Assembly: GCA_963765765.1 (NCBI GenBank)
Contig: CAVXYC010000030.1
Location: 32,001 to 96,000, forward strand
Reading direction: 5' to 3'
DNA length: 64,000 bases
DNA from: an uncultured Chloroflexia bacterium
GTDB lineage: Bacteria; Chloroflexota; UBA6077; JACCZL01
The position numbers were made by a program, and so were the translations under genes. The notes beneath the pieces were generated by a model, which was not told where the DNA came from, made no database searches, and saw nothing but the letters and a program-made list of their open reading frames with translations. Shown here piece after piece: positions 54,923 through 64,000 of this stretch (position 1 is the first letter of the stretch; each line of letters opens with the position of its first letter).

Positions 54923-56128
54923 TCACCACACCTCGTCCACTGACAGACCGAGCGCACTCCGCCCAGCGTACACCAGGGTCTTCTCCGGAGGAAGCGGATG
55001 GTACTTGCCCCCGCGAACATCGCGGTAAGCACGCTCAAGAGGCGATCGCTTGAAGTACGATGATCCGCCCGCCGCTTCCATCGCCAGGTCCACGACCTCT
55101 TCGGCCTCGGTGATGACGCAGCGCTTGGCGATGAGAGCCGCGTTCGTGTTCTGCTCATTCAAGGAGTAGTCGAAGTCTTCGCCAAGCTCAGTCAGGCTGC
55201 CCATGAGCGTCCACCAGGCTACACGAAGCTTGTAGTCCATGAGACCCACGAGCCGAATCAAGGCAGAATCCTCGGTCGGCACATCACCGTTGCGCGCGGG
55301 ACGGCGAGAAGCTACACGGACGGCTTCATTCCGAGCGCCCGCCGCGATTCCGAAGTAGACGCTGGCCATGGTCGGTCCGAAGTGGGTCAGCGCATTGTGG
55401 AATGCGGCGTCCCACCGGCCCCAGGGTCGACGCGCCGCGATCTGCGCCTCTGAGACGAATACGTCGTCAAGCTGAATGTCATGACTACCCGTGCCACGCA
55501 TGCCCAACGCATCCCACGTCTCCAGCACCTGAAAGCCTTCGCTGTTACGCGGAATGCCCATGGCCAGGACGATGCGTCCCTCCTGTGGATCGTCATACGC
55601 TGCCATCGTGCTCAGCACATTGGCGACCGGTGCCTGGCTGCAGAACGCCTTGCGCCCCGTGACTCGGTAGCCGCCCTCAACTCTTACGGCGGTGGCACTG
55701 GGCCACAGACTGTCAGAGCCACCGCTGGTCATCAAGATCAGGCCATCGTTGGCGACGCGTTTAAGAAGTCCATCCGCGCCAGGCGCTCCATGCTTCCACC
55801 GATACACGTTGGTCGTCACCAGGTACAGGTGCATGTTTACCGCGAGGGCCGTGGAGCCACAGTACCGGGCCAGCTCGGCCTGAGCGTAACATGTCTGACG
55901 AAGTGACGCGCCGAGGCCACCAAGCTCCTCAGGAACAATAAGCCGCGTATACCCAGATTCCCGCAGGGCCGAGTAGTGCTCAGACACGAAGGACCCATCG
56001 CGATCATGCTCCGCCGCGAGGGGCGCAATTCGCGCCCCAAGCTCGGCGGCCAGCGGCACGAAACGATCGTCTCCTTCGTGTAACGGCGACGGTCGGAACT
56101 CAGTGGTGCGAGTCATAGTCTGAATCAT
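54923..56128 (-). CDS. Acyl-CoA dehydrogenase-family flavoprotein
   Basis: VPEELGGLG, STALAVNMH, GRKAFCS, WDALGMRGTGSH, LERAYRDVR. Confidence 0.9.
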   Translation of the reverse strand: MIQTMTRTTEFRPSPLHEGDDRFVPLAAELGARIAPLAAEHDRDGSFVSEHYSALRESGYTRLIVPEELGGLGASLRQTCYAQAELARYCGSTALAVNMHLYLVTTNVYRWKHGAPGADGLLKRVANDGLILMTSGGSDSLWPSATAVRVEGGYRVTGRKAFCSQAPVANVLSTMAAYDDPQEGRIVLAMGIPRNSEGFQVLETWDALGMRGTGSHDIQLDDVFVSEAQIAARRPWGRWDAAFHNALTHFGPTMASVYFGIAAGARNEAVRVASRRPARNGDVPTEDSALIRLVGLMDYKLRVAWWTLMGSLTELGEDFDYSLNEQNTNAALIAKRCVITEAEEVVDLAMEAAGGSSYFKRSPLERAYRDVRGGKYHPLPPEKTLVYAGRSALGLSVDEVW

Positions 56129-56279: not shown

Positions 56280-59238
56280 TCAGTCGCCCATCCCGTGGCG
56301 GAGCGCCCAGGCGATCGCTTCCGCTCGGCTGCGCACACCGAGCTTGGTATAGATGTGCGTCAGATGCCGGTCAACGGTCGCTACGCTGACCACCAGAGCG
56401 TCGGCAATCTCCCTGGTGGTAGCTCCGGTCACGAGGTGCTCGAGAACGGTGCGCTCGCGTGTGCTCAACCTATCGGACGCTTCGCTGGAGGGGACGGAGT
56501 CTGTCTCGGACACGGGTATCTGGAAGGCAATTGCCTCGTCGATGGCCTGGTCAATGGACATCGCTCGTCCGGTGGTCCAGGCTTTCTCAAAATCGTCCGA
56601 TGCCAGCCGCGCCCGAGCAGATTCCGTCGTCTCCGTAATGACCGACTCGGCTAGAGGTATCGGCATGACGTCGATGGCCGCGCTGAACGCATGGACGGCG
56701 CTGATCAGTCGGACCGCCCGCTCTGGATCGCCGAGTGCATTGATCAGAGCTGCCCAGGTAGCCAGGCCATTGTGAACGGTCCATGGTGTGCCCAGGCCCT
56801 GAAGCTGTGTGACGCCTGAGCGTACGAGCTCCAGCGCCGGACGATAGTCTCCGCGCCGAAACGCTACCAGGCCCTTGAGGTGGGAACAGATCGCTTCACC
56901 TTCCAGGAACCCGATCTCCTGCCGAATCGCGACAGCGCGGCCGTAGTGCTCCCACGCGGCGTCCAGATCATTGCCAATGTGCGCGGCCAGCGCCAGCAGG
57001 TGCACTGACCAGCCCATCAGCCACCGATCGCCGCACGCCTCGGCCACGCTCAGACTTCGCTGCCCCAGGCGCCTGGCGGCCTCGGCATCGTTTTCGAAAT
57101 ACCGAACACGCCCCATGACGTGAAGAACCCAGGCGTCAGCCCACTGATTGTGATGCTCCCGAGCGAGAGGCAGGGCCTCCTCGAGGAAGTGTTCAGCCGC
57201 GGCGCTATCGCGTTGGATGTGTGCCAACCAGGCTGCCCCGTAGAGCGCCTTGAGTCTCGCCTCGCCACCCGCCAGGATCGCTCAAGCGCCTGCTGCAACC
57301 AGCGCCGCCCTTCACTAATATGACCCCGCTGTGGCCAGAACCAGGCCAGCGCACCCGTTAAGCGAAGCTGCTCATCGTGGGCACGATCATCGGCGAAAAA
57401 GTAAGTGAGCGCAGCCCGCAGGTTATCGTGCTCGGCCTGCAGGCGGTCCAACCAGGCCAGTTGTGCTCGGCCACGCAGGAGCGGCTCCGCCACCTCCGCA
57501 AGCTGTAAAAAGTAGCCTGCCTGCCACCTTCGCATCGAAGCCAGCTCAGCCTCACTTTCGAGCTGCTCAATGCCGTATTCCCGAATGGTCTCGAGCATGG
57601 TGAAGCGCGGCTCGCCCGATGCCGCGTCCATGGGTCTGATCAGGCTCTGACTGATGAGCGACTCGACCCCATCGACGACTTCGTTCTCGACGATTGACCA
57701 ACGTTGATTACCAACGGTCGCGGCAGCCGCTGCTTCGGCGGACTCGAGCGTGAACCCGCCAACGAAGATTGCCAATCGTCGAAACAACAATTGTCCTCCG
57801 ATGGGAGCAGGTTGTAGCTCCAGGCGATAGTATTACGAAGCGTGCGCTGCCGATCGGGCAAATCCACGTTCCCACCGGTCAGGAGCTGCAGCCGCGGCGG
57901 CGATTGGGTCTCCTGAGGAGCGCCCGCAATCGTCGTCGCGTCGGGATCGGTAAGCGTGCCTCCGAGCCGAACGAGCATCGACTCAGCGGAGAAGATTCGG
58001 ACACGAGCCGCTGCCAGCTCCACGGCCAATGGCAGTCCATCGAGCCGGTGACAGATCTGTGCGACAGTCGCCGCGTTCTCCGAAGTGAGCATAAAGTCCG
58101 GCCGCACGGCGCGAGCGCGGTCTACAAATAGACGGACCGCCTCGGAGGCGGCGAAGCGATCGAGCGTCGTGAGTGACCCTGCGTCGGTCGGTTGCACGCT
58201 CGGCAGGTCAAGTGGCGGGACCGTCCGCTCACGCTCACCCGAGATTCGGAGTGCTATGCGACTTGTCACTAACAGGGTGCACCCGGAACAGCGCGTCAGG
58301 AGAGCCGCCAGGGCCGCGCCGGCAGCGTGCACCTGCTCGAAGTTGTCAAGTATCAAGAGCATGCGCTTGCTGCCCAGGTGATCGGCTAGCACCTCAATCG
58401 AAGGTCGTCCCTGCACGTCTGGCAGACCGAGCGCCTGCACCACCGTTGGAATGACGAGATCGGGATCCACGATGGGTGCCAGGGGTACAAAGCACAACCC
58501 ATCGGCGTAGCGGTCCGCGGTCAGCGCGGCGAGCTGAATGGCAAAGCGCGTCTTGCCCGTCCCGCCGGGTCCGGTGAGCGTCATCAACCGACAGTCAGTC
58601 AGGGCAGCGCATGCCTCCGCCAGCTCGCGCTCGCGTCCGATAAACGTCGTTAACTGCTCCGGCAGGCTCGGAGCGTGATGTCCGCCGGTACGGAGCGCTG
58701 GAAATTCTTCCGGCATTCCAGCCACGATGAGCTGAGCTAGGTGCTCCGCGCGCGGCAGATCCTTGAGCCAGTATTCGCCCAGATCGCGAAGCGCGACGCC
58801 GTTAGGAAGATCCGCTTCTATGAGCTCACGCGTGGATCGCGAGACGAGAATCTGCCCGCCATGGCCGGCGGCGCCGATACGCGCGGCCCGGTGCACGTCG
58901 AGCCCGATGTAGTTGCCGCCGACCACATCGGGCTGTCCCGTGTGGATGCCCATACGCGCGCGTATGGGACCCGCCGCCGCTGCCAATGCCGCGGCCAACG
59001 CCCGCTGGATGTCCAGTGCCGCGTTTACCGCATCGAGCGCACGGGCGAAGACCAAGAGGAAGCCATCGCCCTCGTTGCTGACTTCGTGGCCCCGACGCTC
59101 CGCGAGCGTCGCCCGAACCAGGGAGTGATACGACTGAAGCACGTCGCTGTAAGCATCGCCAAGCGCATGCAGCAGGCGAGTGGAGCCTTCAATATCGATC
59201 ACCAGGAACGTCACAGTCCCTGCGGGAATTGCGGTCAA
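56280..59238 (-). CDS. Adenylate/guanylate cyclase - NB-ARC/STAND ATPase - TPR - LuxR HTH regulator (frameshifts about 57790 and 57250)
   Basis: DIEGST, EGDGF, RMGIHTG, GPGGTGKT, LDNFEQ, LDGLPLAVELAAAR, LSTRERTVL...IYTKLGV. Confidence 0.88.
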
Positions 59239-59388
59239 GCCGCTCGCTCCTCGCGAGTCTTGAAAGGATGGTTACTCAGATTATCTCGCATTCAGAGTCG
59301 ATCGTCAGTGGCCTCATCTAACAATAGAGCAGAAGCAAACCAAGCGAATCGATCGTGTGGGGAAAAGAGGAGAGACACAACCATACGC

Positions 59389-59767
59389 ATGGTTTTTGTG
59401 AGTCTGCCGGTCAAAGGCCTGAACGCCTCCAAGGAGGTTTTTCCCAAACTCGGCTTCACCTTTAACAACGACTTCACAAATGATGAGGGAGCCTGCATGG
59501 TCGTGGATGAGAACATCTTCTGCATGCTACTCACCGAGCCGCACTTCAAGGGCCTCATCACCGGCGACATCAGTGATGCTCACAAGTCCATGGAAGTGAT
59601 CAACTGCCTTTCATGCCAGAGCTGGGAGGAAGTGGACGATATGGTAGCCACGGCACTCGCCGCGGGCGGCAAAGAGTGGAAGCCGAAGATAAAGCAGCAT
59701 GTATGGCTGGAGCCTCCAGGACCCTGACGGGCACGTATGGCAGCTGACGTATATGGAACAGCAGTAG
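59389..59767 (+). pseudogene. VOC/glyoxalase protein, frameshifted about 59698 and divergent
   Basis: VSLPVK...LGFTFN.DFT, CMLLT; MYGWSLQDPDGHVW in a second frame. Confidence 0.7.
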
Positions 59768-59892
59768 CGAGCGACGTCCGGTCGGCGATGAACCAGACTT
59801 GATTACAGTGAGGAATTCGGCGCGTCTTTAAGGCAAGATGCGCAGAGTTCAATGTTCACCGCGCGTGACTGAGCACATCGGGGTTGACCACA

Positions 59893-60129
59893 TTAATGGG
59901 CGTAACTTCCGCGTACGCGTTGACCAACGTTGTCCGCCTGCTGTTGCGTGCTCAAGCGAGCCTGGAAATAGGGCTTCTCAAAGGTTCGCTCGAGCTCCAC
60001 GATGATGGGCTCCGAGACGATTAGTTCCCATTCACCAATTAGCCACAGGCGCAACAGGCGATCGGGGATGCTATCGCGCACAGTGAAGCCTGAAGCCAGG
60101 ACATTCGTGTCCAGGACAGCGCATTTCAC
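59893..60129 (-). pseudogene. PIN-domain toxin (putative_PIN type), truncated
   Basis: AVLDTNVLAS, IVSEPIIVELER; only 78 aa, C-terminal acidic motifs absent; start overlaps antitoxin stop (GTGA). Confidence 0.75.
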
Positions 60130-60455
60130 CCGCGATCGGAACTCAGAGTGGTCCTGCGGTTCTCAGCTCTGACTTCGGCGATCGCTCTGGAGATCTCACG
60201 CTCTACCTGCTCACCTGGGGCATCAGCAAACGCCGCCTGGCTGGCATCAAGGATCGCTAGATCCTTCTGGCGCTCGGCGTCCATTTGGTTTAGTCGATCC
60301 AGATCTTGAGCGGAGACAATGGCCGCGACAGGGATACCGCTTTTCTCAACGAGCACTCGCGCCTGGCGGCGAAAGACTCGGTTGAGCAGATCGCTGCATT
60401 GGGCTCGGGCTTCGGATGCTTTGATCGTTTGAGTCATAGGTTCACGCTCCGACAT
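60126..60455 (-). CDS. Phd/YefM-family antitoxin
   Basis: IKASEARAQ.SDLLNRV...VLVEKSGIPVAAIVS; RBS AAGGAGG. Confidence 0.9.
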   Translation of the reverse strand: MSEREPMTQTIKASEARAQCSDLLNRVFRRQARVLVEKSGIPVAAIVSAQDLDRLNQMDAERQKDLAILDASQAAFADAPGEQVEREISRAIAEVRAENRRTTLSSDRG

Positions 60456-60483
60456 GGCACCTCCTTTCCAAGTGTCATAGTCC

Positions 60484-60526
60484 GTACAAATTTGTACAGA
60501 GTAGACGAAACTTGACAGAATGTCAA
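60484..60526 (-). promoter_or_regulatory. TA operon promoter and operator
   Basis: Minus strand TTGACA (60526-21), 17 nt, TACTCT (60503-498); perfect palindrome GTACAAATTTGTAC at 60484-60497. Confidence 0.7.
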
Positions 60527-60581
60527 TAGGGCAATCGAGCCGCGGTGCCGATAACCATATAAACTCTTCATTGGATCATGG

Positions 60582-61652
60582 ATGCGAAGTCTCCGAATTG
60601 ACGACAAGCTGCCTTCCTGGGACAAGACTGAACCGCGGCATGAATGGAAAGGCATTCTAGTTGGCAACGGGGCTAGTCGTGCAGTTTGGGACGACTTCCA
60701 ATACACCTCTCTCTATGAAACGTCTCTATCAGGTGGTCCATATGGGAAGGTGAATAAGTATTTGAGACCCTATGCTGAAGAGCGTGGTCTGTGGCATTCG
60801 CTAACCAAAACTGACCAGGTCATATTCGAGTCAATGAAGACTCAGAATTTTGAACAAGTATTATCAGCACTGATGACTGCCAGGACCGTATGCGAATCAC
60901 TAAACATAGAAACTGCAACGATACAATCGTGCTACAAGAGCGTTCAAAATGCACTGATACACGCTGTTAAACATGTTCATATACCACATAATCTTGCTAA
61001 ACCTATGTTTGAGAATATAAGAGAATCACTCAGAATGCATTCAGTAATATTCTCAACGAACTACGATTTAATAATATATTGGGCTATTATGGATGGTTAG
61101 TATAAAGATTTTCCAGACTACTTCTGGGGGAAGGACAGTAGATTTAACAACACAGATACTAATACAAGACGAGTTGACGTAACGCGACTTCTATTTCTTC
61201 ATGGAGCTCTGCACCTGTATCGTGCTCAGGACGGTGAAACGTTTAAGTCCAAGAGTGACTTTGGCAGTACACTGTTAGATCAATTTGGAACATTGATGGG
61301 TGATGACTACACCCCGTTGTTTATAACCGAGGGAACAGCTCAAAATAAGCTTGCGTCCATTCACCATTCTGATTATCTGTCTTTTGCTTATCGAGAGTTT
61401 GAGCAGCACGATGGCCCGCTGGTGGTGTTCGGACAGGCACTTGGAGATAGTGACAAGCATTTGGTTGAAGCGATCGACGGCTGGGGAAAGAGGCCCATAG
61501 CAATTGGGATGTTGCCCAGCGACTCTGAGAGTATCAGGAAGCGGAAACTTGCTCTCCATCAGCAATTACCAAAGGCTGAGCTGCTTTTCTTCAATGCAAC
61601 AACGCATCCTCTGGGGTCGCCGAACCTTAAGGTTGCGCGGCCGACTCCCTAA
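60582..61652 (+). pseudogene. DUF4917 / SIR2-like protein with a single in-frame TAG at 61098-61100
   Basis: LVGNGAS, FSTNYDLIIYW, *YKDFPDYFW, LHGALHL, PLFITEG...K...I..SDYL, VFGQALGDSDKH; both halves in one frame; AT-rich (18/60 G+C at 60961-61020). Confidence 0.8.
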
Positions 61653-61656
61653 TGAT

Positions 61657-61938
61657 TCAGGGTTTATAAGAGCACCAGGAGCCATCGTCGTTCCTTTGAT
61701 GGCAGCTCCAGAAGGGGCCGCGGCGACTATGCATCAGCGTCATGGGAAGCTGATGCACCGCGCAGACGGGTGCGCGCAGCGGTTGTGATTCGGGATCAGC
61801 TTCAGGAAGCATTGATTCAGGCTTGCTCGCGGCGCGCTGGATGACCTGCTCGACTGTTTCTGATGGGTCTTTGGTTTGGCCCACCATCGCAAAATTTCCA
61901 GCCATCTTGGCAATCACCAGGTACGTGGTTTTACCCAT
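61657..61938 (-). CDS. Small protein with a C-terminal Zn-ribbon-like motif
   Basis: RBS AAGGGAG; CAVH...GPFWSC...DGSWCSYKP; directly downstream of the recombinase. Confidence 0.65.
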   Translation of the reverse strand: MGKTTYLVIAKMAGNFAMVGQTKDPSETVEQVIQRAASKPESMLPEADPESQPLRAPVCAVHQLPMTLMHSRRGPFWSCHQRNDDGSWCSYKP

Positions 61939-61975
61939 CAGCTCACCACTCCCTTCTGTGAGGATGGGGTGGCGC

Positions 61976-62864
61976 TCATAGGCTGGTTTTCTCCATGGCC
62001 TTTCGGCCGCTTCGCTTGGCCAGGTGCACATAGATCTGGGTCGTGTCCAGTCGCGCGTGCCCCAGCCAATCCTTGAGCTGAAAGGCACTCACCCCGTGCT
62101 GAGCCTTATAGGTCGCGAAGGTATGCCTGAAGGAATGGCACCCTGCCCGCTTGGTGATCTGAGCACCCCGACGGTACTTGGTCACGAGTTTCTGCACTCC
62201 ACGCTGGCCGAGTGGCTCACCATACTGGTTCAAGAAGAGATGGTCATCGGACACGTCAGGTCGGACCTTCAGCCAGCTCCTGATGGCTTGCATGCCTTTC
62301 TTCTCCAGCTCGATCTGACGGGTCACCATGCCTTTACCCACCACAGTGATGAGCTGGTGCTCCAGGTCGACCGCTTCAAGCCGTAGGCTACACAGCTCGG
62401 ACACCCTGATCCCTGTCTGCAAGAACAGCTGGAGAATGGCAAAGTCCCTGGGGTTGCCCCCAGCTTGCGCCAACATTCTGGAATATTCATCGGGTGCCAG
62501 GATGGAGCGGGAGTTCTTCTCTTTCTTGGGTGTGTCCAAGCCTTCAGCAGGGGAGTGGGCGATGACTTGCAGATCTTCCCGCGCGAAACGGAAATATTCT
62601 CGGATCGCGGCCAGCTTGCGGGCTCGAGAGACCGCCCGAGAGTTTCTTCTCGCCCAGGCAGGCCAAATACTCCCGCACATCCACCCGAGCTACGTGATCC
62701 ACCGCGGCGATGGTGGCGTTGTTGGCGTGGATCCAGTCAATGAACTGACTCAGATCCGTGCGATAGGCACTCTGGGTGAGCTCGCTCCTGTTTCTGGCCT
62801 GCAACCAGCGGAGGAATTGCTCAAGCGCGAGTTCTAACGTGGGGGCTGTGGTGGTGATGGTCAT
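61976..62864 (-). CDS. XerC/D-like tyrosine recombinase (frameshift about 62635)
   Basis: N-terminal SAM-like AYRTDL; catalytic TGIRVSE, GKG, HSFRH, LGH, TTQIY. Confidence 0.92.
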
Positions 62865-62967
62865 AGAGCTGGCTGGTGTCCTTCCAGGAACGATCACCAA
62901 AGAATGATCGACCTGACCCCAGAGTCTCACGACGGGCCCCGCGGCACAACAGCCTTTCTCCAGTAAA

Positions 62968-63109
62968 ACATGGTTCGCATAACCATGTCAATCGGGAGTT
63001 ATTGCGACCCCAAAGTAAGCGGGGTTGAGATCAGCTTGGGAAGCTCTGGTTCGCAGAAGAAGCGTTATGAGACCCGCGAGTCAGTCCGATAATGGGGGTT
63101 ATCGGAACG
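62968..63109. promoter_or_regulatory. Cluster of dif/Xer-like recombinase binding sites
   Basis: GGTTCGCATAA (62972-82); GGTTCGCAGAA-6-TTATGAGACCC (63048-75); CAGTCCGATAA-6-TTATCGGAACG (63082-109). Confidence 0.7.
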
Positions 63110-63125
63110 AAAAAAGCGGGCCTTG

Positions 63126-64000
63126 CTACTGGATGACTTCGGTGGCCTGCGTCAGGATGGACGGCGGGATGGTCAGCCCCAGGGCCTGCGCTGTTTTGAG
63201 ATTGATGACGAAGTCAAACCGTGGGCCGCTCCATCGGCAGGTCGCCGGGGCGAGCGCCGCGCAGGATCTTGTCCACGTATGGCGACGCACTCCGGTAGAC
63301 CTCGGATCGACTCAGCCCATATGCCAGCAAGCCTCCGGCCCGAGCGAACCCGGATTTTCTGCTGATCGACGGCAGCCGATACTGGAGCGCTAACTCGGCG
63401 AGGCGTCCCCACGCAGAGTCGAACTGAGGGTTGGTGAGAATCTTGAGGGCATCGGCGCCGTCTGCGGACATGGCCGCGAACGCTTCGTCGAGGCCGCTGA
63501 GGTCCGGGATGGGACGATGTGAAGCTGTAGCCCAGCCCAGGGCGCGGCCTCCTGGAGCGCCCGCTCGCGCGCGCTCCGCGGCGGTGGGGTGGGCGCGGGC
63601 TGAGCGGAGCACGGCTACGCGGGAGGCGAGCGGGACCGCTTCCTTCAAGAGTTGAAGCTGCTTGCCTTCCAGCTGCGCCCGCTCACGCCGGCCATCCCGG
63701 TGATATTCCCGCCGGGCGCGCGATGTTGTCGACGAGCCCGATCTCAATCGCTCGCCGCAGACGAGGATCGCCACGAGGGGGAGGGTGACTGGTCGCCTGC
63801 TTGGCGGCGGCGCTAGCCTTCGAGGCCGTACGCAACCAGCTCGACGTTCCGCGCACGAGCTCGTTCGCGAGGGCCCGTACCGTTGAGAGTCCCCTCGGAC
63901 CAGCGGGACTCCACGGCGAGGTTGCGCCCCTCGACCCAGCCCAGCTCCGCATCTCATCCCAGAACGCGTCCCAACGGGCGCTAGGCGAATCACCGAGGAC
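63126..64000 (-). pseudogene. ABC_sub_bind (PF04392-like) substrate-binding protein, several frameshifts, 5' partial
   Basis: GKQLQLLKEAVP, GGLLAYG, YVDKILRGARPGDLPMERPT, then INLKTAQALGLTIPPSIL in another frame. Confidence 0.75.

Follow-up and report, generated by a model that had tools for sequence, protein, structure and literature searches.

The TnpI/IRS system of Tn4430 uses a 116-bp site with four recombinase-binding motifs, in which a core with a 6-bp stagger is combined with accessory motifs next to the gene (PMC2847244). Tn3-family elements carry toxin–antitoxin (TA) pairs, with the types Gp49, PIN_3, PIN and HEPN, directly at res (PMC7157771), and in the single-recombinase system XerS/difSL the site is reported to adjoin the recombinase gene (PMC1914069), as it does in the locus described here. 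This locus lies in a window of 64,000 nt, the whole stretch of DNA analysed, from an uncultured Chloroflexia bacterium (G000:C30:32001-96000; the G000 assembly comprises 6.49 Mb in 33 contigs). At 60544-63111, the window holds a composite site with four similar arms, a gene for a Xer-like tyrosine recombinase, a gene for a 93-aa zinc-ribbon protein and a gene of the DUF4917 family. We read this stretch, with a probability of roughly 0.65, as the degraded remains of a conserved recombination module with three parts (site, recombinase and zinc-ribbon gene), together with one captured gene. To our knowledge, such a recombination unit was previously undescribed.

This reading is built on what was directly observed, i.e., the gene identities, the lesions, the conserved synteny, the linkage between site and recombinase and the variable neighbours. 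In the labels used below, G denotes a genome (G000 being that of the window), C a contig and L an extracted locus; the finding plus 10 kb past the window end was read together as L001. The relatives are throughout metagenome-assembled genomes (MAGs) or metagenome contigs, kin are not independent of each other, and co-assembly duplicates were merged into one count where recognised (L021 and L098 are identical in sequence, as are L071, L072 and L075). The whole composite site occupies 62961..63111 on the minus strand (nhmmer match C30:95111-94961, model positions 3-118, E = 1.3e-17) and consists of four GTTCCGATAA-type arms within 115-150 nt. Two of these arms form motif 1 at 63083..63108 (minus strand; AGTCCGATAA TGGGGG TTATCGGAAC on the plus strand), a 10-6-10 palindrome with a 6-bp spacer that is the candidate crossover core. 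The other two form motif 2 at 62972..63009 (minus strand), where the motif-1 arms recur with a 14-bp spacer. The distance from motif 1 to motif 2 is usually about 45 nt and is 75 nt in the window; 10 of the 11 aligned copies of the composite are 111-120 nt long, while the window copy has a 34-nt insert, which, judging by the nhmmer match length and the alignment, is common to this copy and a paralogue on C20; apart from that paralogue, the other copies measure 115-120 nt in the profile match, 34 nt less than the one in the window.

Among the loci searched, the composite is linked to the recombinase. A profile search of 97 loci (80 metagenome loci and 17 others) matched only L021/L098, L078, L123, L064, L071/L072/L075, L019 and L124. 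The composite lies directly upstream in 7/8 metagenome loci with this recombinase, and the eighth (L085) has 61 nt of upstream sequence, which means that every testable metagenome locus of this recombinase carries it (7/7). The first-pass annotation of the window had proposed conserved CCGATAA ends, and sites of the CCGATAA type are indeed tied to the recombinase. Loci with a serine resolvase, in which a related zinc-ribbon gene also occurs, carry the composite in 0/7 cases. In L021, from a distant Chloroflexota MAG whose recombinase is 61% identical, both palindromes lie upstream at the same spacing. In the intact relatives, a promoter can be discerned from a TTGAC-type box and a TATAAT box, the second of which falls within the left arm of motif 2; this palindrome and the −10 box of the operon promoter therefore overlap. 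In the window, the two boxes have become degenerate.

Compared with TnpI/IRS, the present system likewise pairs a Xer-sized tyrosine recombinase with a four-motif site of some 116 bp that immediately precedes the recombinase gene and overlaps the promoter region. Two inverted motifs flank a short asymmetric centre and make up the core, the other two are accessory, and TA genes are typical neighbours. Four arms over 111-120 nt are found at 7/7 testable loci and at L021, a likeness in sequence architecture only. However, the accessory arms are inverted here with a 14-16-nt spacer, whereas those of TnpI/IRS are tandem direct repeats; an extra conserved zinc-ribbon gene and many solo sites in one genome set the present system apart as well, and no sequence relationship to TnpI/IRS was demonstrated past the tyrosine recombinase superfamily. 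The single-recombinase Xer/dif systems (XerS/difSL, XerH/difH and archaeal XerA/dif) share with it the inverted 10-12-bp arms around a 6-bp centre, and XerA, XerC and XerD are the best family and structure matches of the recombinase. However, the recombinase scores under every NCBIfam equivalog cut-off, its distribution is patchy (3/31 genomes), its gene is broken in both G000 and G001, and there are dozens of sites per genome versus one for dif. The best reading by analogy is that the locus is a decayed member of a TnpI/IRS-like or Xer/dif-like module with variable TA or defence cargo; it is taken as a decayed TnpI/IRS-like module because its architecture is closest to TnpI/IRS, TA genes beside res are known, and no Tn3 transposase was seen among the neighbour ORFs scanned.

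The pairing of recombinase and zinc-ribbon gene, whose conservation the first-pass annotation had proposed to check, is conserved: the same-genus genome G001 has it twice, the distant Chloroflexota MAG has it once, and 6 distinct metagenome sequences carry it as well. What follows the pair is a different gene in each of the nine distinct loci, as the proposal of a varying cargo had anticipated: it is DUF4917 in the window, a SAM methyltransferase in G001 C647, a Cys-rich protein together with an unknown one in G001 C9, a Kelch protein in L021, HEPN in L064, DUF433 in L078, Gp49 with a helix-turn-helix protein in L071, and two unknowns in L123 and L085. Several of the loci are on long chromosomal-looking contigs (305 kb and 124 kb). 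A second site beyond a single convergent cargo gene is present in three loci, namely the window, G001 C647, where a site relic lies about 125 nt past the methyltransferase gene and has 14/14 core identity with a G000 site, and L124, where a full composite lies 455 nt past an OLD-family gene. In the window, this second site is a single arm-like half-site. Upstream of the composites of L019 and L123 there are also additional arm pairs, at distances of 0.7 kb and 4.3 kb. In the pdif modules of Acinetobacter plasmids, short genes or TA pairs lie between XerC/D sites and the cargo varies, and both these modules and integron cassettes resemble the present loci in that variable short genes or TA pairs are bracketed by conserved recombinase sites. 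However, the module here includes a recombinase gene, while pdif modules depend on XerCD of the host; moreover, the recombinase is no integron integrase, the sites are not attC-like, and the two-site bracketing is limited to the three loci. Separately, both ends of the 4.2-kb contig G001 C9 (L011 1-131 and 4053-4183) carry the same recombinase 3′ end in inverted orientation; the cause may be a true inverted duplication or else an artefact of assembly.

The recombinase gene at 61976..62867 on the minus strand, identified by Pfam, is read in two frames, with one extra base near 62634. The catalytic domain extends over 61976-62680 on the minus strand (Pfam Phage_integrase match from 61979, E = 5e-35), and the SAM-like N-domain over 62547-62867 on the same strand (Phage_int_SAM_1, E = 1e-8), in a different frame; a GTG upstream at 62930 is an alternative start. 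Both domains support the tyrosine recombinase named in the first-pass annotation, and the residues R168, K207, H273, R276, H299 and Y308 are invariant in 8 aligned recombinases including the window fragment, so that the catalytic pattern R, K, H-x-x-R, H, Y of the tyrosine recombinase superfamily is kept. However, that annotation had implied an intact enzyme, and the gene is frameshifted. The orthologue in G001 reads uninterrupted across the position of the frame change at 62634, though it has one in-frame TAG. Read evidence was taken from Logan contigs of four soil runs, which covered 0.05-0.26 of the sampled words in patchy pieces of 49-427 nt; in run X1, a 151-nt contig has one base fewer at 62634 and thereby appears to be a wild variant with the recombinase frame restored. 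The intact relative L021 scored 208.9 against the NCBIfam model of XerA (cut-off 220), 208.7 against XerC (335) and 202.1 against XerD (330), all below the cut-offs. A housekeeping Xer was considered and rejected: close homologues occur in just 3/31 related genomes and are broken in two of them, and since the gene is broken in G000 and G001, it is not the enzyme of housekeeping dimer resolution. An integron integrase was also rejected, with L021 scoring 123.8 against TIGR02249 under a cut-off of 265 and the match split in two stretches.

The zinc-ribbon gene (61657..61938, minus strand) encodes the 93-aa zinc-finger-type partner that the first-pass annotation had pointed out. The predicted protein comprises two domains, a beta-beta-alpha part at the N terminus and, after a disordered linker, a zinc ribbon of the type C-x2-H...C-H...C at the C terminus, in which C59, H62, C79, H80 and C89 are invariant in 18 relatives; its structure model has a mean pLDDT of 77, with values above 90 in the ribbon. 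No family for it was found in Pfam or NCBIfam, and a fold search of the model against the PDB gave nothing at E ≤ 0.001, the best Foldseek rows being topoisomerase I C-terminal domains and zf-GRF domains, all at E > 1 and not significant. The Protein Atlas gave weak leads with scores of at most 0.87, among them PF01396, which is carried by 13% of one cluster (score 0.83). By our own reading, a G-R-x-G-x-F-W-x-C motif in the sequence resembles a topoisomerase- or GRF-type zinc ribbon. The family has 23 relatives in a database of 5.8 billion clusters and was found in 9/401 sampled Chloroflexota genomes; in 72,556 plasmid records (PLSDB) and 50,697 phage records (INPHARED) it was unmatched, and a plasmid or phage origin of the gene was dropped as a candidate explanation. 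Prediction of a recombinase/zinc-ribbon complex gave a score of 0.00, which is evidence neither way. Further occurrences were recorded. An ORF (open reading frame) of 154 aa at G000 C2:38344-38817 (L014 2345-2818, minus strand), between VanZ-like and DsbA-like genes, has 73% identity over 37 residues to the N-terminal domain of the protein and is without the ribbon. Six genes of the family are present in one Chloroflexota MAG (G029, the same as G032; C10, C58, C79 and C85), and a Gemmatimonadales contig carries two in tandem (L024 6245-7120). The neighbours in the G029 and Gemmatimonadales loci include HEPN, AbiU2, Mrr, Schlafen-like, type IIG restriction-modification and HigBA genes, i.e., a defence-island context.

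In 43 of the 80 zinc-ribbon metagenome loci the DNA upstream extends over more than 700 nt, and here the upstream gene is a Xer-like recombinase in 8 (6 distinct sequences) and a small serine resolvase in 6 (5 distinct sequences). The gap between the Xer-like gene and the zinc-ribbon gene is 2-45 nt, and in 4/5 distinct serine-resolvase loci the start of the zinc-ribbon ORF abuts the last resolvase codon. In a quick tree of 58 rows with weak resolution, the Xer and serine partner types interleave, one serine-linked and one Xer-linked protein being sisters, and the partner type switched at least 3 times. We had also considered the zinc-ribbon protein as the main factor binding the arms; this was rejected because the serine-resolvase loci, with the same family downstream, lack the composite. 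The directionality factor that the first-pass annotation saw as a candidate role for the protein found no support either: members of the family come after serine resolvases too, and in 29/43 loci no recombinase precedes them.

These partner changes also bear on an alternative in which the locus, instead of being a self-mobile cassette unit, is what is left of a res-like system that resolved multimers or cointegrates and belonged to a larger plasmid, a transposon or an integrated element, the TA and defence genes being the usual passengers by res. The architecture of the site equals that of Tn4430 TnpI/IRS (PMC2847244), and the TA families reported at Tn3-family res (PMC7157771) are the same families that neighbour the zinc-ribbon gene, which itself follows serine resolvases as readily as Xer-like recombinases. 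However, no Tn3-type transposase is present among the 240 neighbour ORFs scanned, in a search that covered ORFs and not terminal repeats (38-bp ends); these ORFs form three sets of 89, 102 and 49, the second being 102/117 neighbour ORFs, with the 15 omitted ones coming from loci that duplicate others. The absence of the zinc-ribbon family from the plasmid and phage records and the chromosomal-looking contigs of several loci also speak against such an origin, which we regard as possible but on the unlikely side. The first-pass annotation had listed no replication, conjugation or phage gene, and none was found in the ORFs scanned from window position 56000 to about 10 kb past the window end, of which only 9 were run against Pfam.

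The captured gene, at 60582..61652 on the plus strand, converges on the zinc-ribbon gene, and the 4 nt said to separate the two stop codons were found exactly, at 61653-61656. Its G+C content, noted as low in the first-pass annotation, is 45%, compared with 56% for the zinc-ribbon gene, 58% for the recombinase gene and 61% for the window, and the cargo therefore has a history different from that of the recombinase/zinc-ribbon pair. Pfam places DUF4917 pieces at 60582-61097 and 61101-61649, in the same frame and separated by a TAG at 61098-61100. These halves match profile positions 1-127 and 154-307 of 311 with 69.2 and 83.5 bits, above the Pfam cut-off of 28, and when the TAG is read through, the match covers positions 1-307 of 311 with 153.5 bits, i.e., the whole length of the family. 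A PADLOC search, which had been recommended for the cargo, also found the gene end to end in two halves, at positions 11-155 and 161-333 of 336 in PDLC04961 (E = 3e-46 and 3e-48), as the SIR2-like PDC-S21, which is a candidate system only; there are weak PADLOC SIR2 matches too. In C. jejuni, the DUF4917 protein SliP was shown to be a sirtuin-type deacetylase (PMC10421069). No literature naming PDC-S21 was found, nor any on DUF4917 in mobile elements. The two halves thus resemble DUF4917/SIR2-like proteins such as PDC-S21 and SliP, but the gene here differs in having at most 48% identity to its relatives (867 were found), a 17-residue insertion in an alignment of 12 sequences, and the premature stop. 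G000 contains one copy of DUF4917, with this one internal TAG, which sits in a variable column of the 12-sequence alignment while 70 other columns are still invariant, so the lesion looks recent. Amber read-through of the in-frame TAGs, here and in the G001 recombinase, was dropped as an explanation, given that no CUA anticodon was found among 51 tRNAs in the genome; the TAG in DUF4917 and the one in the recombinase of G001 C647 (L003/L030 974-976) are therefore read as two independent nonsense changes. With its frame interrupted and no suppressor tRNA found, the gene cannot be listed as an intact PDC-S21 gene, and because of the premature stop the cargo is most likely non-functional here, which departs from the working SIR2-like defence gene of the first-pass annotation.

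The ends of the locus were examined against the proposal, made in the same annotation, of inverted CCGATAA ends. On the left, between the Phd/PIN pair described below and the start of DUF4917, a single arm-like half-site beginning with GGTGCCGATAACC at 60544..60563 is the candidate far-end junction. The 12-mer GTGCCGATAACC at 60545-60556 has an inverted match in 11 of 12 positions at 63097-63108, and with at most one mismatch it has 3 matches in the window against 0.25 expected, a number that 0/100 shuffles reached; GTGCCGATAACCA also occurs beside the module in G029 (L050 position 667). The inverted match is thus real and exceeds chance. However, its right-hand copy is one arm of the palindrome at 63083-63108, which belongs to a family with 32 sites in the genome, and for this reason it is not a unique terminal inverted repeat. 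Each of the two sites is itself palindromic, and the ends relate to each other as a weak direct repeat rather than as inverted repeats (D9; 15/20 between the half-site and 62972-62991). The right boundary at 63109 did not stand either. The paralogue at C20:551881-552330 aligns through the end of an ABC gene, motif 1, the 34-nt insert and motif 2, and this homology (551907-552054) runs past 63109 and ends right after motif 2, indicating a right junction near 62969 instead. On the left, the Phd/PIN pair is homologous to G001 C43 only up to near 60530, which leaves about 14 nt between the end of this homology and the half-site. The candidate junctions coincide with breaks in homology, near 62969 and near 60530. 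An intact, self-contained 2.56-kb integrative mini-element with inverted CCGATAA ends at 60544 and 63097-63108 and a working SIR2-like defence gene would account for the above-chance inverted match and for a conserved pair with varying cargo, yet it requires an unbroken recombinase and DUF4917 gene, unique ends, a boundary at 63109 and some joint or empty site, none of which was found. Already contradicted on intactness by the lesions and on the right boundary by the C20 homology, it is very improbable.

Several observations weigh against the reading of the locus as a degraded module. There is only one arm at the left end, and the direct repeat at the flanks agrees in just 15/20 positions. An empty site and a circular form, both of which the first-pass annotation had called for, were not obtained: no empty site was found, the syntenic G001 contig ending about 950 nt beyond the left-flank regulator gene, and the contigs of the four soil runs, which cover the stretch in short patches, showed no joint of a deletion or a circle. 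The position of the TAG in DUF4917 lies outside the patches that these contigs cover, and the frameshift at 62634 may be an assembly error, although rpoC is open across 1458 aa, so that indel errors did not reach that gene. In 29/43 of the zinc-ribbon loci with upstream DNA, neither recombinase type is found upstream. Finally, 12 near-full composites and about 20 further motif-1 sites in G000 have no recombinase nearby and adjoin ordinary metabolic genes or ABC substrate-binding paralogues, and a purely regulatory or REP-like (repetitive extragenic palindromic) role fits these solo sites equally well.

The solo sites were counted with a scan for two 10-nt arms 3-20 nt apart with at most 3 mismatches, which gave 32 motif-1 sites in G000 against 1 for the reversed control; the spacer is 6 nt in 25/32, mostly TGGGGG/CCCCCA. 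The exact pattern occurs at 11 places in G000, is absent in 28/30 relatives and occurs once in each of two, with 0 for the reversed control. The two-motif profile found 19 places in G000, 12 of which span at least 100/118 model positions, 1 is partial and 6 are motif 1 only. Such numbers would also fit a reading in which the composite is a host promoter-operator, or a repeat like REP or MITE (miniature inverted-repeat transposable element) sequences, bound by a host factor, with the recombinase operon merely downstream of one copy and the DUF4917, TA and recombinase genes being unrelated debris in a variable region. In agreement with this, the 12 near-full composites and about 20 solo palindromes lie behind ABC_sub_bind paralogues or next to genes with housekeeping functions (amidohydrolase, EEP phosphatase, cytochrome bd, Rieske), a TTGACA box comes after several of the copies, motif 2 overlaps −35/−10-like boxes, and the region 59100-63000 is a mosaic of truncated genes. 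However, in whole genomes searched at ≤3 mismatches, the sole motif-1 site of G031 lies upstream of the recombinase gene and one of the two in G029 lies 140 nt upstream of a zinc-ribbon gene lacking a recombinase; G017 has 0 sites, and so does the same-genus G001, which is unexpected for a conserved host regulon. Together with the composite at 7/7 testable metagenome recombinase copies, this makes the host-repeat explanation rather unlikely, and the decayed recombination module remains our preferred reading.

The ABC substrate-binding genes that accompany many sites were noted in their own right. ABC_sub_bind (PF04392) has 67 matches in G000, many of them being one gene fragmented over frames (e.g., window 63126-64000, L001 7100-9550), and the paralogues on six other contigs (C1, C6, C7, C17, C20 and C27) have 84-91% nucleotide identity. 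By our count from the listed distances, 16/32 motif-1 sites are within about 520 nt of an ABC_sub_bind match, and they are often 20-120 nt beyond its stop codon, in either orientation. At three places in G000 (C1:3189-3330; C1:191222-191080, minus strand; C23:468801-468660, minus strand), the composite precedes one and the same conserved stretch, which is about 110 nt long and starts with a TTGACA box; it has no Rfam match and may be an unrecognised leader or RNA element. An Rfam search of the locus and of four composite-bearing loci likewise gave 0 matches.

How an intact module would work can be sketched from TnpI/IRS and Xer/dif, from which we infer DNA binding, the crossover point, mobility and a role for the zinc-ribbon protein. 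In the intact relatives, the recombinase would bind all four arms, and strands would be exchanged over the 6 bp at the centre of motif 1, which are asymmetric. Motif 2, given its overlap with the promoter, would serve both as an accessory site and as a self-repressing operator. Recombination with a second site past the neighbouring gene would then release the recombinase gene, the zinc-ribbon gene and the cargo as a circle, or would swap the cargo; a module of this kind may move on its own, or it may do no more than resolve or invert DNA. The copy in the window is most likely immobile, because its recombinase is frameshifted and its promoter boxes are degenerate. The "cassette element" of the first-pass annotation is thus retained in its conserved pair, variable cargo and linked sites, but not in its inverted-repeat ends, exact right boundary and implied activity.

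The DNA to the left of the half-site is adjacent accessory DNA outside the demonstrated unit. On the minus strand at 59893..60455, Pfam finds a Phd/YefM antitoxin (60126-60455; PhdYeFM, passing the cut-off) and a PIN toxin (59893-60129) that is cut to 78 aa and covers PIN_3 positions 2-65 of 115, so that the pair is not a complete type II TA system. It has 85% nucleotide identity to a pair on G001 C43, which lies in another context. A glyoxalase/bleomycin-resistance-like fragment is present at 59362-59727, and the region 59100-63000, with a G+C content of 49-58% and its truncated TA genes and glyoxalase-like fragment, is a small graveyard of accessory genes. Further left, at 56280-59238 on the minus strand, a large regulator of the adenylate-cyclase/AAA/TPR/LuxR type is spread over three overlapping ORFs with two frame changes; its G001 homologue has 56-72% protein identity across the whole length.

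The locus in the window is a wreck and should not be counted among working defence systems. If the composite is the recombinase's own site, the module of which it is a copy would be a compact, self-contained unit of site-specific recombination from uncultured soil bacteria, acting on a defined substrate of 120 bp and accompanied by a new small protein. As a model, it would show how TA and defence genes are shuffled without transposases or phages, and it would be a possible source of new recombinase/site pairs; the dozens of solo sites in one genome would be a rare example of how the target of a recombinase spreads within a chromosome. A bolder proposal, which we put forward as speculation with the odds against it, is that composite, recombinase and zinc-ribbon protein make up an undescribed, transposase-free gene-cassette shuttle of soil Chloroflexota and their neighbours, which would capture and exchange single TA or defence genes between directly repeated sites in a TnpI/IRS-like manner. 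If this were true, the solo sites would mark docking points, at least 32 of them in G000, where many come right behind ABC substrate-binding paralogues, and the system would be an integron-like one built on a Xer-type enzyme, with the zinc-ribbon protein as a generic accessory factor shared with serine resolvases.

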